Assembly: GCA_964615345.1 (NCBI GenBank)
Contig: CAZTMR010000003.1
Coordinates: 3,322 to 66,295, forward strand
From: an uncultured Dehalococcoidaceae bacterium
GTDB taxonomy: Bacteria; Chloroflexota; Dehalococcoidia; Dehalococcoidales; RBG-16-60-22
Direction: 5' to 3'
DNA length: 62,974 bases
In this document: positions 4,585 to 62,875 of the stretch, piece by piece
Position numbering within the stretch: the first letter of the stretch is position 1
How the letters are laid out: each line of letters starts with the position of its first letter
The notes under the pieces: model-generated
Database searches by the model: none
What the model was told of the DNA's origin: nothing
Seen by the model: only the letters and a program-made list of their open reading frames with translations
Position numbers and translations under genes: made by a program

Positions 4585-6552
4585 ATGCAAATCCAAATGG
4601 CATCCAGAGATGAGACCAGAAAAGACCGGACGCCTGTCAGAGAGACGAAGGAAACACGCCGGCGGCGGGCGGGATTAACGGAGTCACCCCGCCGGGGGCG
4701 GGGAGAAAAACAAAAATCCGGCATCCTGATTGTAGAAGGGGAAACCAGTCCGGCGGCAGCCCTGCGGAGCGTCCTGGAAGCAAACGGCTTCCGCACCGAT
4801 ACTGCCAGTGACGGCCGGACCGCACTGGGCAAGTGCCGACGGGAATCATTCTCCCTGGCGCTCGTTGACGCCCGCCTGCCGGATACTTCCGGCGAACGTC
4901 TGGTCGAAGAGCTGGCCCGCTCATTCCCGGAGACGGAATACATCATAGTCACCGATTACGCTTCTCCGGGCACGGCAAGCGACCAGGGTAACCACGGACG
5001 CGTCATCGCCCACGAAAGCAAACCGATGGATATGAACCGCTTCCTGTCCCTGATAAGAGAAGTCAGCGAGCACAAGCAGCTGGAAACGGAGCTGAAAGAA
5101 AGCGAGGAAAGCTACCGCGCGCTCCTGGAACTGACCGCCGAAGCGGGGGAGGCGGTGGTGATATTGCAGGACACCGGCGGCAAGCCGGCCGTCCACAGGT
5201 ACGTTAACGAGGAGTGGCCTTACATCACCGGATACTCCCGGGAGGAACTGCTCGGCATGTCCTGGTTCGAGCTTATCAGCCCGGACTACCGCGCGGAAGC
5301 CAGGAAGAGGTACCGGAAAAGGGAGAGGGGAGAGCGGATAAGGGGTTTTTATGAGCTGGTCATTGTCAGCAAGGACGGCGCCGAGGTGCCGATTGAGGTA
5401 AACGGCGGCCATACCACCCTGCAGGGCAGACAGGCCCACGTGATTTATATCCGGGATATCAGCGAACGCAAGCGGGCGCAGCAGGGGATGGAACAGGCGG
5501 CCAGAGAATGGCGGACGACTTTCGACGCCATTCCGGACATGATTTCAATCCACGACCGTGATTTCCGAATTACGCGGGTCAATATGGCTTTTGCCAATAT
5601 GGTGGGAATGAGGCCGCAGGAAGTTATCGGCCGGGCCTGCTATGAACTGGTGCACGGCGCCGGCGAGCCGCTGCCGCAGTGCCCCTGCCGGCAGGTTTTC
5701 CGTTCCGGGGAGACGTGCCGGGAAGAGTACCTGGAGCCGAAGACCGGCCGCTTTCTGGAAGAGGTGTGCTCGCCGATATTCGATACCCGGGGTAATCTCA
5801 CCGCCGCGGTACACGTGGCCCGGGATGTGACCGAGCGGAAGAAACTGGAGGAACAGCTATTTCACAGTGACCGCCTGGCGTCCATCGGCGAGCTGGCATC
5901 AGGCATTGCCCACGAACTGAACAACCCGCTGACCAGCATCATCGGATTCTCCGAGCTGCTCAGAGCCAGAGACCTGTCCGAGGAAGTGCGCGACGACCTG
6001 GAAATCATTCACCGGGAAGCCCGGCGCAGCGCGGGAGTGGTCAATAACCTGCTCACTTTCGCCCGCAAGCACAAGACGGATAAAGAGCCGGTGGACATTC
6101 ACAAGATTTTAAGAAAAGTGCTGGAGCTGCGCGCCTACCAGCAGAAAGTCAACCGGATACGGGTGGTTACCCGGCTGGCAAGCCGGCTGCCCGGGGTGAT
6201 AGCCGACGAGTTCCAGCTGCAGCAGGTGTTCCTGAACCTGATTATCAACGCCGAGCATTTTATGATCGAGGCACACGGCGCGGGCACGCTTACCATCACC
6301 ACCGGGCGGAGCGGGGATACGGTCAAGGTCTCCTTCACCGATGACGGACCGGGGATTCCCCGGGAAAACCTGGCCCACGTGTTCGACCCATTTTTCACCA
6401 CCAAGGAAAGCGGCAAAGGCACCGGGCTGGGGCTGAGCGTAAGTCACGGCATCATTACGGAAAGCGGCGGCAGAATCCATGCCGAAAGCGAACCGGGCAG
6501 AGGAGCAACTTTCACCGTGGAGCTGCCCGTCAGCCGGCACCGGGCGGGATGA
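4585..6552 (+). CDS. Hybrid sensor histidine kinase (REC-PAS-PAS-HisKA-HATPase)
   Basis: N-terminal receiver (ILIVEGE...LVDARLPDTSG...KP), two PAS regions, H-box SIGELASGIAHELNNPLT, and ATPase G-boxes (DDGPGIP, GTGLGLS). Confidence 0.9.
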   Translation: MQIQMASRDETRKDRTPVRETKETRRRRAGLTESPRRGRGEKQKSGILIVEGETSPAAALRSVLEANGFRTDTASDGRTALGKCRRESFSLALVDARLPDTSGERLVEELARSFPETEYIIVTDYASPGTASDQGNHGRVIAHESKPMDMNRFLSLIREVSEHKQLETELKESEESYRALLELTAEAGEAVVILQDTGGKPAVHRYVNEEWPYITGYSREELLGMSWFELISPDYRAEARKRYRKRERGERIRGFYELVIVSKDGAEVPIEVNGGHTTLQGRQAHVIYIRDISERKRAQQGMEQAAREWRTTFDAIPDMISIHDRDFRITRVNMAFANMVGMRPQEVIGRACYELVHGAGEPLPQCPCRQVFRSGETCREEYLEPKTGRFLEEVCSPIFDTRGNLTAAVHVARDVTERKKLEEQLFHSDRLASIGELASGIAHELNNPLTSIIGFSELLRARDLSEEVRDDLEIIHREARRSAGVVNNLLTFARKHKTDKEPVDIHKILRKVLELRAYQQKVNRIRVVTRLASRLPGVIADEFQLQQVFLNLIINAEHFMIEAHGAGTLTITTGRSGDTVKVSFTDDGPGIPRENLAHVFDPFFTTKESGKGTGLGLSVSHGIITESGGRIHAESEPGRGATFTVELPVSRHRAG

Positions 6553-6950
6553 TTGACGTTATGAATAAATCCAGTTACGATATAAGGAGAGTCCTGGTGG
6601 TGGAAGACGAACCGTCCGTGGGGGACGTCTTCCGGAGGGTCCTCCGCCCGCAAGGGTTTGAGGTGGATATCGCCGTCAACGGAGTGGTGGCCCTGAGGAT
6701 GGTGGAGGAGAAGCACTATGACCACTGCCTGATTGACATCAGGACGCCGGAGATGAACGGGATGGAGTTTTATATGTGGCTCCAGGACAGGCAGCCAGAG
6801 CTGGCGGACCAGGTGATATTTACCAGCGGGGACATCATTGACGAGGAAACGCAGGCTTTCCTGAAAAAAAGCAGCCAGCCCTTCCTGTCCAAGCCGTTCA
6901 CACCAGAGGAACTGGTCAGGAAAACCAGGGAAGCCTGGAAAAGGAGATGA
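6549..6950 (+). CDS. Single-domain response regulator (REC only)
   Basis: VLVVEDEPSV...LIDIRTPEMNG...FTSG...SKPF. ATGA overlap with the kinase stop suggests translational coupling. Confidence 0.9.
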   Translation: MIDVMNKSSYDIRRVLVVEDEPSVGDVFRRVLRPQGFEVDIAVNGVVALRMVEEKHYDHCLIDIRTPEMNGMEFYMWLQDRQPELADQVIFTSGDIIDEETQAFLKKSSQPFLSKPFTPEELVRKTREAWKRR

Positions 6951-7023
6951 AACCATAGTTCAGTCACTGGGCAGAGTACTCATTGTTGACGATGAAGAAA
7001 CCGTCCGTAAGCTGCTGCAGCGG

Positions 7024-7587
7024 ATGATTGAGAACGCGGGGTATACCACGCTTGCCGCGGCCAACGGTCAAGAGGCCCTGGACCGGATAGCGGGGGAGGA
7101 GATAGGCATACTGGTTCTGGATATCAAGATGCCGGAGATGTCCGGCATCGAGGTGCTGAAAAGGGTGGCCACCGATTATCCGGACATTTGCGTGGTAATG
7201 GCCACCGCGGTTGCGGACACGGAGACAGCGGTGGAGACGATGCGGCTGGGTGCGGACGACTACATCACCAAGCCGTTCAGCCAGGATAACGTCCTCCAGG
7301 CGCTGAAAAGGGCCGCCGGAAAAAGGGACCAGAGGCTGGAAGAGGAGCGTCAGCGCCAGCAACTCGAGGAGACCATCAGCAAGCAGGCGGAACGGCTGCA
7401 GCAGCAGTTCGTCGACCTTGTGGAGACTCTGGCCAGAGAACATAAGCTTCTCTACGAACGGGCCGCGAAACAGCGAGGCGGCATAAAGTCGATGTTCAGC
7501 AAGCTCCCTCCGGAACTCCGCAAGCCGATGTCCTCCGTGGAAGAATACAGCGAAGCCCTGCTGAAAATACTGAGAAGAACGAAGTAA
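7024..7587 (+). CDS. Response regulator, REC + C-terminal coiled-coil; true start probably upstream (about 6955)
   Basis: LVLDIKMPEMSG...ATAV...DDYITKPF receiver motifs, then a Q/E/R-rich helix. The conserved beta1 VLIVDDEE is encoded in-frame upstream of the first canonical start (see finding). Confidence 0.8.
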   Translation: MIENAGYTTLAAANGQEALDRIAGEEIGILVLDIKMPEMSGIEVLKRVATDYPDICVVMATAVADTETAVETMRLGADDYITKPFSQDNVLQALKRAAGKRDQRLEEERQRQQLEETISKQAERLQQQFVDLVETLAREHKLLYERAAKQRGGIKSMFSKLPPELRKPMSSVEEYSEALLKILRRTK

Positions 7588-53084: not shown

Positions 53085-53183
53085 CCTCTTCCCGCGCGAC
53101 AAAAAAAGACGCTGGTGCGGAGAAGACACGGCGGTTTGGAGGTAGAGTGCCGTTTCCTTCGAAGTCAAGGAAAGGTTGAAGTC

Positions 53184-54083
53184 ATGAGTATAAACCGGCG
53201 GGAGTTTATCAAGCGGGCGGTCGGCGCCGTGGGACTAACGGCAGCGCTTTCCTCGCCGCTGATGCCGGTAATCAGAAAAGCGCGGGCGACCGGGGACGAT
53301 AGCGAAGGCGCCCCGCCCGAGAAAAAAAGAAAGTGGGTGATGGTCATCGACCTGAAAAAGTGCGATGGCTGCATCGGGCTGGGGATACAGCCGCAATGCA
53401 TGAAGGCCTGCATCCAGGGGCACTACGTTCCCAAGGGGCAGAAGTGGATAGAGATTTTTGAAGATGACCTTCCCGGAGGCGGCACCTATTTCCTGCCCAC
53501 TCCCTGCTACCACTGCGATAATGCGCCCTGCGTTAACGTTTGCCCGGTGGCGGCCACCTACCACACCGAGTCCGGGGTTGTCCTCATTGACCAGCGGCGC
53601 TGCATCGGCTGCCGGATGTGCATGGCGGCCTGCCCCTACCACCGCCGTTTCTTTAACTGGGGCACTCCGGAGCTGCCCCCAGAGGCGGCTCTGGCCGAGT
53701 ATTCCCCGGAACACCAGGTGCCGGCGATAAAGGGAACGGTCATGAAATGCGATTTCTGCCCTGACATGATGCAACAGGGCAGATTACCCTTTTGCGTAAC
53801 CGCCTGTCCCCGGAAGGTGCTCTACATGGGCGATTTAACGGACGACCTTGCCTCCAACGGGGCGGAGGTGGTGAAACTTTCCCGGTTTCTCGGTGATAAC
53901 GATGCCTTCCGTTACAAGGAGGGCCTGGGTACCCAGCCCAACGTCTATTATCTGCCCGGACACGGGCAGCTCTCCGGCAGAAAGCCCGAAGACGGGCGTG
54001 ATCTCTTCCCTACCACCTGGGACTGGGGAGGAAAAGGCTACGACCGAACTTTTAATTTCTGGCCGCCAGGGGAGGCGGAATAA
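53184..54083 (+). CDS. Tat-exported 4Fe-4S subunit (NrfC/PsrB/HmcB/DsrO family)
   Basis: Twin-arginine signal NRREFIK, and four Cys clusters (CDGC..C, CYHCDNAPCVNVCP, CIGCRMCMAACP, CDFC...CVTACP). ATG 53184. Confidence 0.9.
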   Translation: MSINRREFIKRAVGAVGLTAALSSPLMPVIRKARATGDDSEGAPPEKKRKWVMVIDLKKCDGCIGLGIQPQCMKACIQGHYVPKGQKWIEIFEDDLPGGGTYFLPTPCYHCDNAPCVNVCPVAATYHTESGVVLIDQRRCIGCRMCMAACPYHRRFFNWGTPELPPEAALAEYSPEHQVPAIKGTVMKCDFCPDMMQQGRLPFCVTACPRKVLYMGDLTDDLASNGAEVVKLSRFLGDNDAFRYKEGLGTQPNVYYLPGHGQLSGRKPEDGRDLFPTTWDWGGKGYDRTFNFWPPGEAE

Positions 54084-55492
54084 TGAGACCGCGGGTGGAG
54101 AGCGAAAGTCAGCGCCTGGAACGGACGGTGCTCAGCCCTCTGGAGCGGACGGGGACAGCTTACTACGTTTTTATTTTATTTCTGCTGGGCGTAGTGGCCC
54201 TGGGGGTATACGCTTACATTACCCAGATTTATTACGGTCTGGTAGTCACCGGGATGCGGGACACGGTCTTCTGGGGGCTGTACCTGGTAAACTTCGTCTT
54301 CTTTATCGGCATCAGCCACGCCGGAACGCTCATTTCCGCCATTCTCCGGGTGACCAATGCCGGCTGGCGGACTCCCATCACCCGCATGGCGGAATTGATA
54401 ACGGTGGTGGCGATATCCATCGGCGCCCTGATGCCGATTATCGACCTGGGACACCCGGAGCGGGTGTGGCACCTTATCGCCTACGGGCGCTTCCAGTCGC
54501 CGCTGCTCTGGGACATAATCTCCATCACTTCTTACCTGACCGGGAGCCTTATCTATCTTTACCTGCCGCTCATTCCTGACTTTGCCCTGATGCGGGACCG
54601 GCTGGCGCGGAGCACCTCTACCCTGAAGCGGAAGGTTTACTCCCTGCTGGCGCTCGGCTGGAAGGACACCCCCGAGCAGCGGCACCGGCTGGAGAAGGCT
54701 ATCGGCATTATGGCGGTCACCATAATTCCCATCGCCGTTTCCGTTCACACGGTGGTCTCTTACGTTTTTTCGATGACCCTGCGCCCCGGATGGGACAGTA
54801 CCGTCTTCGGCATTTACTTCGTCATCGGGGCCATCTTTTCCGGCATAGCTTCCATCCTCATCGTCATGGCCATCTTCCGCAAGTTTTTCCACCTGGAGGA
54901 ATACATTACCGAGCGTCACTTCAAAAACCTGGGCACCCTGCTCCTGGCCACGCTGCTCATTTACCTTTACCTTACCCTCGGCGAGTACCTGACGGTGGGT
55001 TACAAGCTGGAAACGGAAGAGGAACACCTGCTCACCCTGCTGATGGTGGGGAAGAACGCTTTCTGGTTCTGGTCATTTATCATCGGCGGGCTGGTAATAC
55101 CGGGGGCGCTGCTGCTGGCCCGCCGCGGGCCGGTCATCACCAGGGTGGTCACGGCTTCCGCGCTGGTAAACGTGACCATGTGGATAAAGCGGTTCGTCAT
55201 CGTCATCCCTTCTCTCCAGGTGCCGTTGATGCCTTTCGAGTTTGGCAGCTACACCCCGACCTGGGTTGAGTGGTCCATAACCGCGGCCGCTTTTGCCGCC
55301 TTTATCCTGATTTTCGCCATTTTCGCCAAGCTGGTGCCGCTTATTTCCATCTGGGAGGTGGCGGCAGAAAGCAAGGCCACCCCGGTAAGCCGCCTGAGCT
55401 CGCTCATCGAGCGCCTGGGGATGGCGCCGGGAGAAATCGAAAGCCTGGTAAACCGGCTTATCACGGAAAGGGGCGGGCGCCGGGAGAGGTGA
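54083..55492 (+). CDS. NrfD-family integral membrane quinone-interacting subunit (ActC/HmcC/DsrP-like, about 10 TM)
   Basis: GMRDTVFWGLYLVNFVFFIGISHAGTLISAILR motif. The TAATG overlap with the FeS gene suggests coupling. Confidence 0.9.
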   Translation: MRPRVESESQRLERTVLSPLERTGTAYYVFILFLLGVVALGVYAYITQIYYGLVVTGMRDTVFWGLYLVNFVFFIGISHAGTLISAILRVTNAGWRTPITRMAELITVVAISIGALMPIIDLGHPERVWHLIAYGRFQSPLLWDIISITSYLTGSLIYLYLPLIPDFALMRDRLARSTSTLKRKVYSLLALGWKDTPEQRHRLEKAIGIMAVTIIPIAVSVHTVVSYVFSMTLRPGWDSTVFGIYFVIGAIFSGIASILIVMAIFRKFFHLEEYITERHFKNLGTLLLATLLIYLYLTLGEYLTVGYKLETEEEHLLTLLMVGKNAFWFWSFIIGGLVIPGALLLARRGPVITRVVTASALVNVTMWIKRFVIVIPSLQVPLMPFEFGSYTPTWVEWSITAAAFAAFILIFAIFAKLVPLISIWEVAAESKATPVSRLSSLIERLGMAPGEIESLVNRLITERGGRRER

Positions 55493-55540
55493 AAATGTAT
55501 CCCGGGCCGTAATCCGGCCCGGTGAACGGAGACGAAAAAA

Positions 55541-56677
55541 GTGTCAAAGGTCAAATCAGGGCTTGCGGCATTGCTGGTGGCGTTTTTGTTCTGGGTGATG
55601 GCGGCGGCGGTTCTGGCCCAGGAAGAAGTGCCGGCGCCCTACGCCGGACAGGAAAACCCCTTTGCCTGGGATGAAGAAACGGCTATCTCCGCCGGCCAGG
55701 AAATCTACAAGAAGTCATGTCTGGGCTGCCACGGCATTGCGGGTGACAACCTTGCCGGGGCCGATTTCAGCGACGCCGATTACGCCCGCCAGTTAAAAGG
55801 CAGGCCAGATTTTTCCTTCTGGATTATCAGTGAAGGAGCGCTGGAGAGGGGTATGCCGCCTTTTAAGTCATCCCTCTCCGGAGAAGAGCGGTGGCAGCTG
55901 ATAACTTATTTGCCTGCGCTGGCCGCGGCGGAGCCTCCGCCCGAAGCAAAAGAGGACGGGGCAAAAGAAACGCCGGAGACACCTTCCCCGGCGCCGGAAC
56001 AGCCGGGGGAAGAGAAAGCAACCGAACCAAACACCCTGGCGATGGCGGCACCGGAACAGGTGGCCGCCGGAGAGCCGTTGATGGTCACCGCCTACCTCCG
56101 TGACGGTGAGGAAAAGCCGGTCAGCGGCGCCGAGGTAACCTTTTTTATCGAGGTGAACTTCTTTACCCGAGACCGGGTGGAGATAGGGCGGGCGGAGACG
56201 GACGAAGACGGAATGGCCGTTCTCCATTACACTCCCCGCCCGACGGGAAACCTGCAAATAGTTGCCCGCACCGGGGAAGCCGAGACCTCGGTACCACTGC
56301 GAGTCACCGGGGGTGACGGACCGCACCGGGCAGCGGAACTGGGCGTTCCGCTGCCCGCCCCCGGGGAAGAGGTGTTTATCGGCCCTGAATCTTCCCGGTT
56401 CCTGGATGAAAGCAGCAGCGCCCCCACCAGCGCCCTCCGGCTGCCCGGCGGTATCCTTTCCTGGCTCCTGCTGGTTATCTTAACGGTAGCTCTCATCTGG
56501 TTTACCTATTTTCGCGTCGTCTACCAGATGTACCGGCTCCCGGTGCTCCGCGATATCAGAGATACTGACACCAGGCTGTTGCCCAGAATAGGGATGGTTG
56601 TTGTAGTAGTCATCGGCGCCACGCTGGTGCTGATGATACTGACGGGGCCGTACAGCCATTTCCACACGCTTCCCTGA
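55541..56677 (+). CDS. Monohaem class-I cytochrome c fused to Pro/Glu linker, beta-sandwich-like domain and two C-terminal TMs
   Basis: Signal peptide, CLGCHG haem site with downstream GMPPF Met ligand, PPPEAKEDGAKETPETPSPAPEQPGEE linker, then hydrophobic helices at the C-terminus. GTG start with GGAG 9 nt upstream. Confidence 0.8.
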   Translation: MSKVKSGLAALLVAFLFWVMAAAVLAQEEVPAPYAGQENPFAWDEETAISAGQEIYKKSCLGCHGIAGDNLAGADFSDADYARQLKGRPDFSFWIISEGALERGMPPFKSSLSGEERWQLITYLPALAAAEPPPEAKEDGAKETPETPSPAPEQPGEEKATEPNTLAMAAPEQVAAGEPLMVTAYLRDGEEKPVSGAEVTFFIEVNFFTRDRVEIGRAETDEDGMAVLHYTPRPTGNLQIVARTGEAETSVPLRVTGGDGPHRAAELGVPLPAPGEEVFIGPESSRFLDESSSAPTSALRLPGGILSWLLLVILTVALIWFTYFRVVYQMYRLPVLRDIRDTDTRLLPRIGMVVVVVIGATLVLMILTGPYSHFHTLP

Positions 56678-56774: not shown

Positions 56775-56801
56775 TTCATTCCATCTTCATAATACCTTCA
56801 T
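56775..56801 (+). promoter_or_regulatory. Three direct TTCAT repeats at 11-bp phasing (candidate OmpR-family regulator site)
   Basis: TTCAT at 56775, 56786 and 56797, in the contexts cTTTCATt, tCTTCATa and cCTTCATa. They lie about 130-155 nt upstream of the Gly/Met-rich protein gene. Confidence 0.5.
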
Positions 56802-56929
56802 ATCTGCCTGTTATTCTGAGAGTGTACGGGGGAAGCCGGGGATGAGCCAAAACCGCCGGGGCTGCTTACCGGCAATAATATTCACCTCCCGCACAGCGAT
56901 AGAAAGAAGAAGAAAGAGGAGGAAACATT

Positions 56930-57625
56930 ATGAAAAAGCTACTGGTTATCGGTTCACTGGTGCTGCTGGGGCTTCTGGTTATCGGCTCCGCGTTCCCGGT
57001 CCTGGCGCACACGGAAGACTCTGAGGGAACGGTCGCCCCCGGCGGCATCTCTGAGAGCCATCCCACCGTGGTGAGGCTGGCAGAAGTCCTGGGGCTGACC
57101 CCGGAGGCACTCGCTGGCCTTCTCCAGGAAGGAAATAACCTTTCTGAAATTGCCGCCGAACAGGGCGTAGCCGAAGAGGCGGTGCTGGAAACAATCCTGG
57201 CCCCACACACCAGCCAGATAGAACTGCGCCTGGAGTACGGATACCTCACCCAGGAACAGGCGGATGCCATGCTGGCCGAGGCAGAAGAGCACGCCCGGTT
57301 ACTGCTGGAGCGGGACTTCTCGACTGTCGCGAGTTACGGCGACCGGGAAGAGATGGAGGAGTACTGCGGCGGGATGATGAGCGGCTGGGGCGGCCCGGCC
57401 GGGTTTGACGGCGGTATGCCACACCACGGTTACGGGATGATGGGTTACGGCGGAGGTCACGGGATGATGGGAAGCTGGAGCAGCCCGGCGGACGGATGGG
57501 AAGAAAGTCCCCGCTTCCGCAACTATGAGGAAACCGGCCGGGGAGGCTGGGGCGGCATGATGGGACGCTTCGGGAATAACCTCACCCCCGGGAGCCGGGG
57601 TGGCGGCAATATGATGGGCTGGTAA
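56930..57625 (+). CDS. Secreted protein: helical N-domain + Gly/Met/His-rich C-terminal tail
   Basis: Signal peptide ending PVLAH. A helical LTQEQADAMLAEAEEH region may be DUF2680-like (from memory). The tail has GGMMSGWGG, GGMPHHGYGMMGYGGGHGMMG, GGWGGMMG and GGGNMMGW. RBS is GAGGAGG. Confidence 0.75.
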   Translation: MKKLLVIGSLVLLGLLVIGSAFPVLAHTEDSEGTVAPGGISESHPTVVRLAEVLGLTPEALAGLLQEGNNLSEIAAEQGVAEEAVLETILAPHTSQIELRLEYGYLTQEQADAMLAEAEEHARLLLERDFSTVASYGDREEMEEYCGGMMSGWGGPAGFDGGMPHHGYGMMGYGGGHGMMGSWSSPADGWEESPRFRNYEETGRGGWGGMMGRFGNNLTPGSRGGGNMMGW

Positions 57626-57663
57626 ATACCGGCCGGTCAGGGCAAGACAGTAAACAAAGCTTG

Positions 57664-57703
57664 AAGCGGCGGCCGGGGTGTATGTCCCGGCCGCCGCTTT
57701 TTT
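57664..57703 (+). terminator. Strong rho-independent terminator
   Basis: 12-bp GC stem GCGGCGGCCGGG/CCCGGCCGCCGC (57666-57697), 8-nt loop, then TTTTTT (57698-57703). Confidence 0.85.
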
Positions 57704-57769
57704 GCATAGTTCAAAAAGTAATTGTATGCTGGTATTGACTGGTGTTAAACAGATTGGAGCGACGCAAAA

Positions 57770-58471
57770 GTGGTCAGGGGCACGATACTGGTAGTGGACG
57801 ATGAACCGAAGATGGTAGACCTGGTGCGCGCCTACCTGGAACGGGACGGCTACCGGGTGGCCGAGGCGGGGGACGGACGCCAGGCCCTTGAGGTCTTCCG
57901 TAAGGTGTCACCAGACCTGATTGTCCTTGACCTGATGCTGCCGGAAATGGACGGTCTGGAAGTGTGCCGGGAGATACGCCGGACATCAGACGTACCCGTC
58001 ATTATGCTCACCGCCCGCGATGACGACGCGGACAAGCTGATAGGGCTGGAAATCGGCGCCGATGACTACATCACCAAGCCCTTCAGCCCCCGGGAGCTGG
58101 TGGCGAGGGTGCGGGTGGTGCTGCGCCGGGTCCGGCCGGAGACGCCGGCCCGGCCTGAAGGGCGGCTGGTCCACGGCGAACTGGTGCTCGACCAGGAACG
58201 GGTGGAAGTGAGCTGCCACGGGCAACCGCTGCCGCTTACCCTGACCGAATTCCGCATCCTGGCCGCCCTGGCGGCTTCACCCGGGCGGGTGCTTTCCCGT
58301 TCCCGGCTGCTGGACGCGCTGGGAGAGACCTACGAAGGTTACGAGCGCACCATAGACGTCCACATCAAGAACCTGCGGCGCAAAATGAATGCGGCCGGCG
58401 CCGGGAAGGGCTGTAGCATCGCCACCGTGCACGGTCTGGGCTACAAGCTTCAGGAGTCACCGGATGTTTAG
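57770..58471 (+). CDS. OmpR/PhoB-family response regulator
   Basis: ILVVDDEPKM...LDLMLPEMDG...MLTA...DDYITKPF, plus a winged helix (LTLTEFRILAALA...IDVHIKNLRRKM). GTG start. Confidence 0.95.
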   Translation: MVRGTILVVDDEPKMVDLVRAYLERDGYRVAEAGDGRQALEVFRKVSPDLIVLDLMLPEMDGLEVCREIRRTSDVPVIMLTARDDDADKLIGLEIGADDYITKPFSPRELVARVRVVLRRVRPETPARPEGRLVHGELVLDQERVEVSCHGQPLPLTLTEFRILAALAASPGRVLSRSRLLDALGETYEGYERTIDVHIKNLRRKMNAAGAGKGCSIATVHGLGYKLQESPDV

Positions 58472-59606
58472 CTGGTTGAAGCCAGACCGGTTATCGGTGA
58501 GGCTTGGCGCGGCTTTCCTGCTGGCCGCCCTGGCCGGAATCGGTCTGGTGGCCGTGCTGGCTTACCAGAATACTTCCAACGAGTTCAATTCGTTTTTGGC
58601 TCACGTGGAGGCGATGGAGCGGGCGATGGGGGGCGGAATGATGGGCGGAATGATGGGCAGCCGGGCTTTTCTCCAGGCACAGCGGGACTTCCTGGACAGC
58701 CTGGGGCAGACGCTCCTTATCGCCGGAATTTCCGGCGCGCTCCTGGCGATAATTCTCAGCGGCCTGTTCGCCCGGCAAATCGTGAGACCCCTGGATAAAG
58801 TGGCCTCCGCGGCGCGGCGCGTGGCGGGAGGCGATTTCAATCAACGGGTGGAAATCAGCGGTTCCAGTGAAATCGCCGAGCTGGGACAGTCCTTCAATAC
58901 CATGGCGGCAACTCTGAGCCATGACCGCGAAACGCGACAGAAAATGGCGGCTGACATCGCCCACGAGCTGCGCACACCCCTTTCCATATTACAGGGCAAC
59001 GTAGAGGCGATGCTGGACGGAGTTATGCAGACGGACCGGAAAAACCTGGAGTCACTGCACCAGGAGACGGCGCACCTGACCCGGCTGGTGGAAGACCTGC
59101 GCATCCTTTCTCTGGCCGAAGCCGGACAGCTCAGCTTTCAGCCGGTGAGCACCGATATGAGGAAACTCGCCGGGCAGATTACGGAAACGTTCCGTACCCG
59201 TTTCTCTCAAAAGAACATCAGGTTTTCCCTGGAAACCCCGGATGACCTGCCTCCGGCGCTGGCGGACCCGGACCGGACGGCGCAGGTACTGCGCAACCTG
59301 CTCAACAACGCCCTCCAGTACACGCCGGAAGGAGGTCAAGTAACGGTGAAGCTGACCCCGGAGCAGGAGAGTATTACCATCTCGGCACGGGACAGCGGCT
59401 CGGGTATCCCTGCCGAGCACCTGTCCCGTATCTTTGACCGTTTTTACCGGGTTGACCGTTCCCGCCGGCGCAGCACGGGGGGCTCCGGCCTGGGGCTGGC
59501 CATAGTGAAACAGCTCACGGAGGCACAGGGCGGCCGGGTGTGGGCGGAAAGCGAACCGGACCAGGGCAGCTCTTTCTTCGTCCGGCTGCCACGGGCAGAC
59601 CGGTAA
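58464..59606 (+). CDS. Sensor histidine kinase (2 TM, short Met/Gly-containing loop, HAMP, HisKA, HATPase)
   Basis: ATG 58464 overlaps the regulator stop. Loop is ...HVEAMERAMGGGMMGGMMGSRAF.... H-box is AADIAHELRTPLS. ATPase motifs are DSGSGIP and GSGLGLAIV. Confidence 0.9.
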   Translation: MFSWLKPDRLSVRLGAAFLLAALAGIGLVAVLAYQNTSNEFNSFLAHVEAMERAMGGGMMGGMMGSRAFLQAQRDFLDSLGQTLLIAGISGALLAIILSGLFARQIVRPLDKVASAARRVAGGDFNQRVEISGSSEIAELGQSFNTMAATLSHDRETRQKMAADIAHELRTPLSILQGNVEAMLDGVMQTDRKNLESLHQETAHLTRLVEDLRILSLAEAGQLSFQPVSTDMRKLAGQITETFRTRFSQKNIRFSLETPDDLPPALADPDRTAQVLRNLLNNALQYTPEGGQVTVKLTPEQESITISARDSGSGIPAEHLSRIFDRFYRVDRSRRRSTGGSGLGLAIVKQLTEAQGGRVWAESEPDQGSSFFVRLPRADR

Positions 59607-59639: not shown

Positions 59640-59873
59640 CTATCTTTGCCGGCGCACCAGATAGTGCCCGATGAGAAAGCCTAGGCTACCCAGAACAAAG
59701 AGCATGGCCAGGATGACCAGCTGCAGGCTGCCCAGGAAGCTGCAGGCCCCGGGGATAACAAAGAGGACCAGCAGGCCCGCCACCAGGCTGGAAACGGCCA
59801 GGAAACCGCCGGTCAGCCGGAGCAGCTCTCTGCCCGTGGTGTTGGGGTTGAACGCAGGATTCAGGGTTACCAT
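59640..59873 (-). CDS. Small two-TM membrane protein (77 aa), last gene of the decahaem operon
   Basis: GGGAGG 7 nt upstream of the ATG, two hydrophobic helices, 37 nt downstream of the NrfD-like gene. Confidence 0.6.
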   Translation of the reverse strand: MVTLNPAFNPNTTGRELLRLTGGFLAVSSLVAGLLVLFVIPGACSFLGSLQLVILAMLFVLGSLGFLIGHYLVRRQR

Positions 59874-59910
59874 AGGGCTACCTCCCTTGCTTGTCTATCT
59901 TCAAGCACGG

Positions 59911-61086
59911 TTAAAAACTGAACCTTCTTCTTTCCGGCGCTTTAGCGGTTTCCTCCCGCCACGGCGGCAGCAGATAGGCGATAACCGCCAGAAGAACGAA
60001 AGGGAACAGCGTCAGCGTTACCGCGGTAACTATCCCCTCCAGCCCCAGCAGGGGCGGGGTATAGCTGGTGAACCCGCGCAGGCTTTTTGACATCAGCTGC
60101 CCGCCGATGACCACATTCCAGCGCATGGCAAACACGCCGATAAGCACCAGGACCGAGGTCAGCGCCCGGATAAACGTTTTGTGGCGGGCCTCCAGGTCAA
60201 CGATTTCCACGCCACCCAGGACGATTAGAGGCAGCAGGGCGCCGAGCAGGAACTGGATGCCAAAGTAGCTCACCCCGATAACTTCGGTTATCAGGCGGGA
60301 GACTATTTCCCAGCTTTCTTCGGCCTCGTAGAGCATGGAAAATACTTCCAGCCCTTCCAGCACCACGTTGATGCTCAGGAAGCCGAGCAGCCAGAGGGAC
60401 ATAAACCGCAGGGCGTCATGGTCCAGCCGGGCTTTCCTGATTCTGGTTACCAGGACGTAGAGGACAATGAGCAGGGCGATGCCGGAGACGGTAGCTGACA
60501 TCAGGAAGATGACCGGCATCAGCGGAGTTGACCACCAGGGGTTGGCCTTGATTGCCCCGAAGATAAAGCCCACGTAGCCGTGGAGCAGAAAAGCGGTGGG
60601 GATTCCGATGAAAGCAAGCACTTTAATAATTTTTTCGTCAACGGCGCGTGCCCGTTCCGATATCCGGTACACGCCCAGGGCGAGGACGGCGTAAATGGTT
60701 TTCAGAGTGCCCTCGCTGGAATGGTAGTAACGCACGATGTCTTCCCGGAAAACCAGCCAGACTTCACCCGTCACCATCAGCAGGTAGAAAAACCAGATGT
60801 AACCGAAAGCGGACATCGCCGAGTTCAGGTTCGGCGTCAGGAACATCTCGAAAGCCCTTTCCGGTCGGCCCAGGTGGATGGTCAAGGGCAGGGGGGTTAC
60901 CAGCAGAAAAGCCAGCGCCGTAACCAGTGAAAAACGGGCGACGGGCTCCAGCCTTTTCAGCCCGAAGACGTGGTAAAGCGAAGAGACGATGAAAGCGCCG
61001 GCCACCAGGCCGGTAATATAAGGATAGATGACGATAAGCAGGTCCCACTCGATGACGCCTTCGTTAGGGTAAATGAATCCCGCCAC
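59911..61086 (-). CDS. NrfD/PsrC-family integral membrane quinone-interacting subunit (about 8-9 TM)
   Basis: EWDLLIVIYPYITGLVAGAFIV...HLGRPERAFEMF motifs typical of the NrfD/PsrC type. Confidence 0.9.
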   Translation of the reverse strand: MAGFIYPNEGVIEWDLLIVIYPYITGLVAGAFIVSSLYHVFGLKRLEPVARFSLVTALAFLLVTPLPLTIHLGRPERAFEMFLTPNLNSAMSAFGYIWFFYLLMVTGEVWLVFREDIVRYYHSSEGTLKTIYAVLALGVYRISERARAVDEKIIKVLAFIGIPTAFLLHGYVGFIFGAIKANPWWSTPLMPVIFLMSATVSGIALLIVLYVLVTRIRKARLDHDALRFMSLWLLGFLSINVVLEGLEVFSMLYEAEESWEIVSRLITEVIGVSYFGIQFLLGALLPLIVLGGVEIVDLEARHKTFIRALTSVLVLIGVFAMRWNVVIGGQLMSKSLRGFTSYTPPLLGLEGIVTAVTLTLFPFVLLAVIAYLLPPWREETAKAPERRRFSF

Positions 61087-61089
61087 GAC

Positions 61090-61893
61090 CTAATGCACCC
61101 CCTTTTCGAAGCCGATATAGTAGACCTTGGGTTCGGTGCCCAGGTCCGGTTTCAAGACGTAGACGCGCTTTTCCCGGAGCACCGTTTTCACCACGCTCTG
61201 CGGGTCACGCAGGTCCCCAAACGCTCTGGCGCCCACCGGGCACGCTTCCACGCAGGCCGGCAAAAGGCCCCGGCTTATCCGGTGGTAACACCAGGTGCAC
61301 TTATCAACGACCCCCTCTTCCGGCAGGAAAAATCTCGCGCCGTAGGGGCAGGCCTGAATGCAGTAGCGGCAACCGATACAGTGCTCCCGGTCAATCAGGA
61401 TTACGCCGTCATCGGTCAGGTAGGTGGCACCAACCGGGCACACCTTCACACAGGGAGGGTCGTCACACTGGTTGCACAGCTTGGGGATGAAAAAACTTTT
61501 CCGGATATTCAGCCCCCGGTATTTGGCGTTCATATGCTCGGCGGCAAACCCGTCCCGGCCGCCGTTGGGCGAGTCCACGAAGATTTCTCCGTCCTCGGTA
61601 ATGATGTATCTTTCCACCCAGGTGCGGTTGAACTCCGGTTCCCAGGGGACCCCGTTTTCCAGTTTGCAGGCGACGACACAGCGCCCGCAGCCGATGCATT
61701 TCTCGTTATCACAGACAAAGCCCCAGTAATGCTTCTCCCAGCTTTCCTCCCCTATCTTCGCCGGGCCCAGAGAACTCGGGCCATCCTGGGCCTGCGCCGT
61801 GTTCCGGCGCAGGGACGGCACCGCGCCGGCCACGGCTCCCCCGAGCAATCCGGCCGAACCGAGTTTGATAAAGTCCCGCCGCGTTATTTTCAT
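61090..61893 (-). CDS. Tat-exported 4Fe-4S subunit (NrfC/PsrB/HybA family)
   Basis: MKITRRDFIK twin-arginine signal. Cys clusters CIGCGRCVVAC, CNQCDDPPCVKVCP, CIGCRYCIQACP, CTWC...CVEACP. ATG 61893 follows GAGGGAGG. Confidence 0.9.
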   Translation of the reverse strand: MKITRRDFIKLGSAGLLGGAVAGAVPSLRRNTAQAQDGPSSLGPAKIGEESWEKHYWGFVCDNEKCIGCGRCVVACKLENGVPWEPEFNRTWVERYIITEDGEIFVDSPNGGRDGFAAEHMNAKYRGLNIRKSFFIPKLCNQCDDPPCVKVCPVGATYLTDDGVILIDREHCIGCRYCIQACPYGARFFLPEEGVVDKCTWCYHRISRGLLPACVEACPVGARAFGDLRDPQSVVKTVLREKRVYVLKPDLGTEPKVYYIGFEKGVH

Positions 61894-61903
61894 TTTTCCT
61901 CCC

Positions 61904-62875
61904 TCAGGTCCCGCTGTGACAGCCGGTACAGGTGTCACTGGTGCGTCCGGAGTGGTCTTCCGGCACGGCCAGGTCTCCCGCGGAATGGCACATCAGGCAA
62001 TCTTCCCGCCCTTCCAGGTCATGCGGTATCCGGGTGGGCCCGTCAGCGGTCTCTGCTGGCTCCGGAACCATCTCCGGAACCGGAGAAGGCGTTACCGGGG
62101 CGGACGCCACCGGTGCGGCTATTTTTACTTCCGCGGGCTGGTGACAGATCTGGCAGGAAACGCTTTTCCGGCCGATATGGTCTGCCGGAAAAGGCTTGAT
62201 AGCGCCGGAGTTGTGGCATTCCAGACAGTCTTCCCTTCCCTCCAGAGAATGGGGGATGTGAGGCAGTTCCAGGCCCCTGACTTCTTCCGGTCCGTGGCAG
62301 GTGAGACACTCCGTACGCCCTTCCAGGGTATGGGGAACGATGGGCGGGGGCTCTTCCCAGAACTCGTGTTTACCGTGGCAGGACTGGCACTCGGCGCGGT
62401 CCTCCAGGGAGTGGGGGACCTGGGGCGGCATCCCTGCTCGCGGTTCGTGCGGGTCATGGCAGCTGACACATTTTTCACCGTGACCCATCTCCGCCATATC
62501 CACCTGGGGAAAACCGGCGGGACGGGAAACAAGCCGGGCATGGCAGGTGCCGCAGAGTTCCCGCTCCGTACTCAGCCTGAGCGGTGCGCCCGTATCCAGA
62601 TGTTCCCGGGCCGGGCCGTGGCAGTTTTCACAGCTCACAGTCTGGTGGTCCCCTTTTTGCCACATGGCATAATTTTCCTGGTGGCAATCAGCACACAGTG
62701 AAGAACTGGCGAACTGCATCGGCAGAGCGGCCCATTCATGCCGGTTGGCTTCTTTATCCGGCTGGTGAAAACCGTAATCGGCCAGGGTATCCGGCACCGG
62801 CATCACTCTCAGGCCGATGAAAACGAAGCCCAGCACCGCCGCCAGCAAAAGGCCCGCCCTTTTCAAATGCGTCAT
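61904..62875 (-). CDS. Membrane-anchored decahaem c-type cytochrome
   Basis: N-terminal hydrophobic anchor. Ten CXXCH motifs: CADCH, CENCH, CGTCH, CVSCH, CQSCH, CLTCH, CLECH, CQICH, CLMCH, CTGCH. Confidence 0.9.
   Translation of the reverse strand: MTHLKRAGLLLAAVLGFVFIGLRVMPVPDTLADYGFHQPDKEANRHEWAALPMQFASSSLCADCHQENYAMWQKGDHQTVSCENCHGPAREHLDTGAPLRLSTERELCGTCHARLVSRPAGFPQVDMAEMGHGEKCVSCHDPHEPRAGMPPQVPHSLEDRAECQSCHGKHEFWEEPPPIVPHTLEGRTECLTCHGPEEVRGLELPHIPHSLEGREDCLECHNSGAIKPFPADHIGRKSVSCQICHQPAEVKIAAPVASAPVTPSPVPEMVPEPAETADGPTRIPHDLEGREDCLMCHSAGDLAVPEDHSGRTSDTCTGCHSGT

Follow-up and report, generated by a model that had tools for sequence, protein, structure and literature searches.

The DNA analysed here is a stretch of 62,974 nt (the window, to which plain coordinates refer) from a 1.7-Mb genome of a Dehalococcoidia-type member of the Chloroflexota. 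Three open reading frames (ORFs), confirmed from the sequence, follow one another on the (+) strand and code for an exported protein, designated SEC, a response regulator and a sensor histidine kinase (Table 1). SEC ends in a low-complexity tail, and the Gly/Met motif repeated in this tail recurs at the centre of the short extracytoplasmic loop of the kinase, as had been noticed in an initial annotation of the window; the two partners also share it in orthologous loci and in distant relatives. The module appears to be self-contained, consisting of a sensor kinase, a regulator and one secreted protein that they apparently switch on. Homologous loci in other genomes are referred to by L numbers.

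Table 1. Features of the SEC–regulator–kinase module and of its control region
Feature	Position	Strand	Basis and remarks
Three direct TTCAT repeats, 11-bp spacing, presumed OmpR/PhoB-type regulator site	56775..56801	+	Sequence reading
Putative -10 hexamer TATTCT, pho-box-like geometry, no -35	56812..56817	+	Inferred promoter
SEC, exported protein of 231 aa	56930..57625	+	ORF; signal peptide, helical DUF2680-like domain, disordered Gly/Met/Trp/His tail
SEC signal peptide, residues 1-26	56930..57007	+	Hydropathy, AxA rule
SEC helical N-domain, residues ~41-133, contains YLTQEQADAML	57050..57328	+	AlphaFold2, weak DUF2680 match
SEC low-complexity tail, residues 146-231	57365..57622	+	Composition; five GMM/MMG motifs
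Intrinsic terminator hairpin between the SEC and regulator genes, 12-bp GC stem and T-run	57666..57703	+	Sequence reading
OmpR/PhoB-family response regulator, 233 aa	57770..58471	+	Response_reg and Trans_reg_C
Sensor histidine kinase, 380 aa: TM1, helical hairpin with Gly/Met tip, TM2, HAMP, HisKA, HATPase_c	58464..59606	+	Pfam, AlphaFold2
Kinase extracytoplasmic loop, ~48 aa, with AMERAMGGGMMGGMMGS at 58611-58661	58569..58712	+	Hydropathy, orthologue alignment

The kinase matches PF00672 (HAMP), PF00512 (HisKA) and PF02518 (HATPase_c), all above the cut-off, and has two hydrophobic segments, which makes it a HisKA-class transmembrane kinase. Its true start is most likely the ATG at 58464 (MFSWLK...), because this codon overlaps the stop of the regulator gene and makes the protein as long as all its orthologues (380 aa). 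Hydropathy places the first transmembrane helix (TM1) at residues ~13–35 and the second (TM2) at ~84–103, and therefore the external segment comprises ~48 aa; the loop is thus short, as had been claimed, and longer than the ~35 aa estimated initially. Its centre is the MGGGMMGGMMG core at 58626–58658. In the AlphaFold2 model, the helices of residues 9–54 and 64–121 are interrupted solely at residues 55–63, the Gly/Met segment, where the confidence score pLDDT is <50. Because the helices break at this segment alone, the whole external part of the kinase is modelled as a helical hairpin with a flexible, Met-rich tip. The alignment of kinase N-termini (n=44) reads (H)xEAMxxMM, a variable run of Gly and Met, GGMMG and AQAxxDFL. 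The GGMMG core is near-invariant, the repeat number ranges from MMG alone to three GGGMM units, and the Gly/Met motif is retained in nearly all of the 34 kinase orthologues.

The regulator is assigned to the OmpR/PhoB family by PF00072 (Response_reg, E 3.9e-36) and PF00486 (Trans_reg_C, E 5.9e-21), both above the cut-off, and its best NCBIfam models are those of CreB, BaeR and PhoB, all below the cut-off. Two BaeS models, NF012163 (cut-off 500) and NF007837 (cut-off 603), give the kinase 269 and 268 bits, respectively, with the match limited to its cytoplasmic part. Neither protein is a scored member of the heavy-metal families: the sensor model TIGR01386 (CusS/CopS/SilS) gives the kinase, which has a 48-aa hairpin and no folded periplasmic domain of ~130 aa, 200.6 bits vs 292.55, and the regulator model TIGR01387 gives 152.6 bits vs 279.2.

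SEC is exported and 231 aa long and has the four tail motifs quoted in the initial annotation. Its classical signal peptide (MKKLLVIGSLVLLGLLVIGSAFPVLA, followed by HT) is predicted to be cleaved after VLA, the site being derived from the AxA rule without a dedicated predictor. In the alignment of close homologues A26 is invariant and H27 nearly invariant, and His is the first mature residue in at least 90% of them. This N-terminal His (57005–57010, SEC residues 26–27, LA/H), which is absent from more distant relatives, could by analogy with CopC-type proteins make an amino-terminal Cu(II) site. The N-domain is modelled by AlphaFold2 (21 homologues) with pLDDT ~85–95 as helices in residues 45–127. 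The tail of 86 aa comprises 29 Gly, 11 Met, 5 Trp and 3 His (34% Gly, 13% Met) and carries GGMMSGWGG, GYGMMGYGGGHGMMG, GGWGGMMG and GGGNMMGW; with pLDDT ~30 it is predicted to be disordered. Its length varies among the homologues, and the C-terminal GGMMG(GS)W is always kept. Invariant among close homologues are also the single Cys, C146, before the tail, and W207.

Homologues of SEC number 37 in a set of 5.8 billion proteins, the close ones being from Dehalococcoidales/Chloroflexota. The N-domain alone matches 2,843 representative clusters at E<=1e-3, many with 2–7 tandem copies, and in such multi-repeat relatives the composition of the linkers varies widely. The initial guess of DUF2680 (PF10925) was borne out in part. 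SEC itself scores 15.2–16.7 bits (E 0.008–0.024), below the 25-bit gathering score, but 18 of the 30 aligned SEC relatives match the family (best E 2.2e-8); SEC is therefore tied to it loosely, as a probable relative by transitive homology and not as a scored member. A literature search found no functional study of DUF2680/YckD. LTXXQ, Spy and Metal_resist gave no match to SEC at E<=10 and are not among the 25 families most often matched by the 30 relatives (E<=0.1). A profile search of PDB with SEC returned no chain below E 0.08, only weak helix-turn-helix-like matches (sigma region 3, phage terminase small subunit), and Foldseek of the SEC model against PDB gave no match with E<0.5. These family, PDB-sequence and fold searches thus found no homology of SEC to the CpxP/Spy/ZraP chaperones. 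DUF305, the CopM-type domain, likewise has no match in SEC even at E<=10 and is not among the families listed for the relatives.

The shared motif is not an effect of chance or composition, because at least two GMM/MMG motifs occur in only 3 of the 9,206 ORFs (>=50 aa) of the whole genome and two of the three are neighbours: SEC, with five motifs, and the kinase, with two. Recent gene conversion between tail and loop was rejected, since the DNA likeness of the two genes is limited to a 16-nt codon motif, GGCGGNATGATGGG. The two partners also co-vary among relatives. SEC sequences were clustered at 50% identity (18 clusters), and any 12 residues with 4 or more Gly and 2 or more Met were counted as a Gly/Met segment; 10 clusters have it in both partners and 6 in neither, 2 have it in SEC alone, and none has it in the kinase alone (one-sided Fisher p=0.0015). 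Permutation tests on 12 clusters, which like the former statistic ignore lineage-wide composition bias and use clusters that are not fully independent, show that cognate pairs share more 4-mers than non-cognate ones (2.83 vs 1.71, p=0.005) and are more alike in low-complexity composition (cosine 0.62 vs 0.49, p=0.003), also when Gly and Met are left out (p=0.024). Thus, the loop GRGMMWGRG of L043 is accompanied by the tail GRGGGMMGRGMMGGW, MMGGNVNGMMG of L044 by GGNMMNNYGG, and GRMGPRAGMG of L012 by GMGRGGFGMMGPGGMRG, and in the L055 group both partners have Gly/Ala/Pro-rich segments. No paper describing such a shared-motif kinase/secreted-protein module was found in the literature search.

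One explanation of this likeness is direct feedback following the CpxP–CpxA/ZraP–ZraS logic. The SEC tail, especially its GGMMG(GS)W, would dock on the kinase tip, bridged by an ion or not, and damp or tune the kinase, and the signal would be an envelope or secretion stress titrating SEC away; the scheme is compatible with metal sensing. The excess of shared 4-mers in cognate pairs argues for such a contact, as do the composition match that survives removal of Gly and Met, the Arg-, Asn-, Phe- and Gly/Ala/Pro-flavoured variants that recur in the two partners at one locus, the fact that the motif tends to be present or absent in the two together, and the identity of the terminal motif of SEC with the invariant loop core. 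However, the co-variation could stem from lineage-wide composition bias, two clusters with a Gly/Met tail lack such a segment in kinase residues 1–320, the searches described above found no CpxP/Spy/ZraP homology in SEC or its 30 relatives, and the metal-gene neighbourhood described below would be left unexplained unless a metal is also involved. The CpxP-type logic suggested in the initial annotation thus finds no support in homology, and as a feedback scheme it stays an unlikely rival.

The third ORF with the motif is an unlinked gene of the host genome at C29:2896-3243 (-), coding for a small SHOCT-domain membrane protein that exposes a GWGMMGPWMMGG-type segment. SHOCT-type proteins with such a segment in relatives (L005 4894-5244 and 6714-7013, L073 5896-6153, L077 2655-2993) flank SEC or copper genes, and the SHOCT proteins may therefore also belong to this motif network.

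Expression of SEC appears to be governed by a dedicated promoter of a well-known design, which the initial annotation had overlooked. In activated promoters of the PhoB type, direct repeats one helical turn apart replace the -35 element and end ~10 bp before the -10. Upstream of SEC, TTCAT is found at 56775, 56786 and 56797, and TATTCT at 56812 lies exactly 10 nt past the proximal repeat, a geometry that agrees with the PhoB type (pho-box-like). The same design, with two to four CTTCAY/CTCCAY repeats 11 bp apart, 10 nt and then TAnnnT, precedes SEC in L001–L005, L031, L037 and ~15 more distant lineages (~20 in all); the 10-nt gap to TAnnnT is kept in ~15 lineages, including L001, L004, L005, L039, L040, L046, L049, L012, L052, L056, L016 and L007. 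This geometry suggests that SEC is controlled directly by an OmpR-family regulator, presumably the one encoded beside it. The 3x TTCAY/11-bp site occurs once in the 1.7-Mb genome, and in a looser two-repeat scan upstream of ORFs the SEC promoter was the only credible site; SEC is therefore apparently the sole output of the two-component system in this host. This single target also speaks for direct feedback, as the loop would close on itself. No sign was found that the module also controls copA or the flanking NrfCD operons: repeat sites are missing there, and copA has its own palindromic operator.

The hairpin between the SEC and regulator genes, which a simple terminator scan did not list, has equivalents 3' of SEC in L001–L004. 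A search of the SEC leader and the terminator region with Rfam gave sub-threshold matches only, all confined to the terminator hairpin, and therefore no riboswitch is proposed for the ~100-nt leader.

The pairing of SEC with the two-component system is conserved. The SEC-like domain was found by profile search in 151 of 401 Chloroflexota genomes and in 88 of 218 genera. The order SEC, regulator, kinase is kept in the close relatives L001–L005, L031 and L037, and SEC usually has an OmpR-type regulator and a kinase as neighbours, mostly in this order, in two further sets of loci, 29 taken from a species-level genome collection and 29 short ones from a phylum sample. Among 20 segments of ~17 kb from distinct genera, the regulator–kinase pair adjoins SEC in 18. 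P0029, a distant SEC relative without a Met-rich tail, is linked to no two-component system, and thus the linkage is a property of most, not all, family members.

In many lineages the module lies among metal genes. A P1B ATPase gene is located within ~8 kb of SEC in 6 of the 20 segments vs ~0.35 expected (~17-fold, Poisson p ~2e-6), the expectation being calculated from P1B counts per genome, segment length and genome size, with the genera treated as independent. In L007, SEC is followed by a Tat-exported CueO-like multicopper oxidase, the regulator and the kinase, and the oxidase carries GGRMGMMGGMD beside its copper ligands. L024 comprises CopA (CPC, MSFSS), DoxX, a cupredoxin, the regulator, the kinase and SEC. 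In L029 a CPH-type CopB ATPase, His-rich at its N-terminus, is encoded nearby, together with a CopY-like repressor. Copper genes are also found in L077 (an oxidase, a SHOCT protein and CopA upstream) and L084 (CopA, a cupredoxin and DUF302 near the module), and a cation-diffusion transporter lies near the module in L023. In L037 and L068 (Dehalogenimonas) genes for ArsR, an HMA-ATPase, SEC, the regulator and the kinase follow one another on one strand, and ArsR and HMA-ATPase genes adjoin the module in L016, L018 and L075. ATPases with (A/S)CSC in TM4 instead of CPC/CPH, paired with ArsR/SmtB, occur in L016 (804-2909), L018 (860-3196), L037 (4100-6412), L068, L070 and L075. The proposal of the initial annotation that the module responds to a metal thus gains indirect support, from neighbouring P1B ATPases, the CueO-like oxidase, cupredoxins and ArsR/SmtB- and CopY-like regulators.

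The reading favoured here, at a probability of roughly 0.5, is that of an extracytoplasmic soft-metal sensor, probably for Cu(I), that drives a motif-matched secreted buffer. The kinase would expose solely a helical hairpin tipped by a flexible His/Met/Gly cluster. Thioether-rich Met/His/Trp segments are established ligands of Cu(I) and Ag(I), and a soft, thiophilic metal, most likely Cu(I), or else Ag(I), would bind the methionine thioethers of the tip and may bridge both hairpins of the dimer. Binding would alter the packing of TM1/TM2 and HAMP and shift the balance of kinase and phosphatase activities, upon which the phosphorylated regulator would bind the three direct repeats replacing the -35 element and switch on SEC. 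Because its tail repeats the motif of the kinase tip, exported SEC would bind the same ligand with similar chemistry, offering five or more motif copies together with Trp, His and one Cys, and by lowering the free ligand at the membrane surface it would reset the sensor. The analysis itself establishes the gene structure and membrane topology, the conserved linkage, the promoter architecture, the joint occurrence and co-variation of the motif and the enrichment of metal-export genes in the neighbourhood; the soft-metal ligand, its binding by either partner and the direction of regulation we infer.

Several facts weigh against a copper sensor–buffer pair. The kinase and the regulator fall under the CusS/CopS–CusR cut-offs and are nearer to BaeSR/CreBC. 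In the host genome the module adjoins no metal gene; CopA (C9) and a CopB-like CPH-type ATPase (C65) are encoded elsewhere, and host CopA (C9:44220-47105) has a different, palindromic operator. Several of the adjacent CSC ATPases score slightly better as the Cd/Zn type (NCBIfam), and the metal need not be copper, given their CSC motif and this marginal preference. A pure methionine-ligand model predicts neither the Met-poor lineages, which are Gly/Ala/Pro-rich in both partners, nor the co-variation of residues beyond Gly and Met. Moreover, disordered Gly/Met-rich regions can be merely structural.

This last point leads to the view of SEC as a generic envelope or matrix protein, whose flexible tail would serve as a sticky polymer in the pseudo-periplasm or S-layer space; general envelope stress would be the signal of the two-component system, and the motif would stand for common membrane-surface chemistry, not for a ligand bound by both proteins. 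It accords with the predicted full disorder and variable length of the tail, with the wide variation of linkers in multi-repeat relatives and with the BaeS-like, envelope-stress type of the kinase. The near-invariant GGMMG core of both proteins, the coupled presence and absence of the motif and the enrichment of metal-export genes are left unexplained by this view, which makes it improbable.

The co-variation can also be read as a lineage-specific 'barcode', a low-complexity segment common to the sensor and a secreted decoy, of which the composition (Met, Arg, Asn, Phe or Gly/Ala/Pro flavours) co-evolves through a homotypic contact, possibly bridged by Cu(I), or through matched-affinity competition for one ligand. 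This interpretation is tentative, and we would hold it to be rather doubtful. If true, the signal would be perceived by a disordered motif, not by a folded domain, and the set-point would be fixed by the match between the motifs of sensor and buffer.

Among characterised systems, the copM-copR-copS operon (copMRS) of Synechocystis sp. PCC 6803 is analogous in logic and in its order of exported binder, regulator and kinase (PMC4335983). Its binder, CopM, is induced by the two-component system of the operon; located in the periplasm and partly outside the cell, it binds Cu(I) in both places and confers resistance by sequestration (PMC4335983). However, CopM is folded and not detectably related to SEC, and CopM and CopS are not reported to have a motif in common. 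CopRS of Synechocystis also controls an RND efflux operon, whereas SEC seems to be the only target of the module, which further differs in the terminator between the SEC and regulator genes. The CopRS system of C. glutamicum is, like the module, a monoderm two-component system with a short external loop in the kinase; the loop of CopS has 31 aa, the His and Met of which were proposed as a copper site (PMC3140484). A Gly/Met repeat is lacking from this loop, as is a partner protein with its motif, and the regulon includes genes for an oxidase and an ATPase, among others. The kinase of the window scores below the cut-off of the heavy-metal sensor family.

In ZraP–ZraSR and CpxP–CpxAR, envelope stress systems of E. 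coli/Salmonella, the accessory protein that the system induces in the periplasm acts back on the sensor, and ZraP also binds metal. As a point of likeness, SEC contains the LTXXQ-like string LTQEQ; no homology to ZraP or CpxP in sequence or fold was found. ZraP and CpxP are folded helical chaperones having no motif in common with their sensors, whose periplasmic domains are large. PcoE/SilE, the synthesis of which is induced through copper/silver two-component systems, and the Met-rich inserts of oxidases of the CueO type bind Cu(I)/Ag(I) in the periplasm by segments that are rich in Met and His and mostly disordered; the GGRMGMMGG-type inserts of the L007 oxidase beside SEC are comparable to the latter. 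PcoE/SilE and the CueO-type inserts differ from SEC in that MxxH/HxxM takes the place of GGMMG and that both a folded DUF2680-like domain and a matching sensor loop are lacking. Finally, DUF2680 (PF10925; YckD of Bacillus subtilis) is, like SEC, a secreted helical repeat with the (Y/L)TQEQAD signature; SEC itself is below its Pfam cut-off, and the literature search assigned no function to the family.

Accordingly, the OmpR regulator, the HisKA kinase, the DUF2680-like domain and a metal-responsive two-component system with an induced periplasmic binder are of already known kinds. What would be new is a sensor in the form of a disordered Gly/Met tip on a hairpin, a motif copied and co-varying in a single induced protein, and an effector from an orphan family. 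If the sensor–buffer reading is true, it gives the first testable function to the orphan DUF2680-like family (2,843 clusters; ~38% of sampled Chloroflexota genomes) and explains how metals are monitored at the cell surface of wall-less/monoderm Chloroflexota, including the organohalide-respiring Dehalococcoidia used in bioremediation. It would also represent a minimal sensor design, a disordered Gly/Met hairpin tip whose ligand chemistry is copied in the controlled effector, and the compact, apparently insulated set of promoter, regulator and kinase with a single target would be attractive as a biosensor part.

In the window the module is situated between two electron-transfer gene clusters. 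Upstream of SEC (53115–56677) lie genes for an iron–sulfur (FeS) protein of 322 aa, an NrfD protein of 469 aa and a membrane-anchored cytochrome c with Big_1 and two TM helices. Downstream, convergent with the kinase gene, an operon at 59640–62875 (-) codes for a 77-aa protein, NrfD, an FeS protein and a decahaem cytochrome. The latter is found in the same position in L031 (9655–12895), whose SEC is 51% identical; the genes upstream of SEC differ there. The position between two cytochrome/quinone modules, stressed in the initial annotation, is thus correct for the window and partly conserved, and it is not a general feature of the module.

This setting is one of the points in favour of a methionine-oxidation module, in which the Met pairs of the kinase would be a redox switch for hypochlorite-like species, peroxides or oxidants from the neighbouring respiratory complexes and SEC would be a sacrificial scavenger like MrpX. 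Precedents exist: the activity of HypV/HprS of E. coli is controlled by the periplasmic Met72/Met73/Met153 (bioRxiv 10.1101/2021.09.09.459708), and MrpX is a methionine-rich periplasmic protein induced and oxidised by hypochlorite (PMC4436054). Both are, however, tied to MsrP/YedY, and no methionine sulfoxide reductase was found among the Pfam-scanned neighbours or annotated contexts of the module, the 20 phylum-wide loci not having been probed for it. Further arguments against it are the neighbourhood signal, which is that of metal export, the strict anaerobes among the relatives, e.g. Dehalogenimonas, and the conservation of Trp, His and Cys, which suits ligand binding better than scavenging. 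Methionine oxidation is accordingly given little credence, and soft-metal sensing is preferred to it.

As regards copper handling elsewhere in the host genome, the region upstream of CopA (C9:44150-47105) contains TTGACA...TATACTAGTATA, a perfect palindrome overlapping the -10, which suggests a separate, cytoplasmic copper regulator; CopA itself ends in a Cys-rich YHS/TRASH-like extension.

An FeS–NrfD gene pair (46% and 56% identical to that of the window) is also located directly upstream of the SEC homologue in the distant Anaerolineales contig L026 (2301–5597). The third gene there codes for a cupredoxin-like N-terminal part with Big_1 and a TM anchor, where the window gene has cytochrome c. 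A swap of haem and copper carriers within one module is a possible explanation, and the module may be linked to copper-dependent electron carriers, a hint that comes from two lineages only. L026 and L027 have identical ORFs and match coordinates, and their metagenome-assembled genomes are labelled Anaerolineales and Verrucomicrobiota, respectively; one of the two is probably mis-binned. Between SEC and a DUF302 gene, L026 also encodes (6492-7028) a 178-aa lipoprotein without a Pfam match that consists almost wholly of (N/T)GQxMM repeats.

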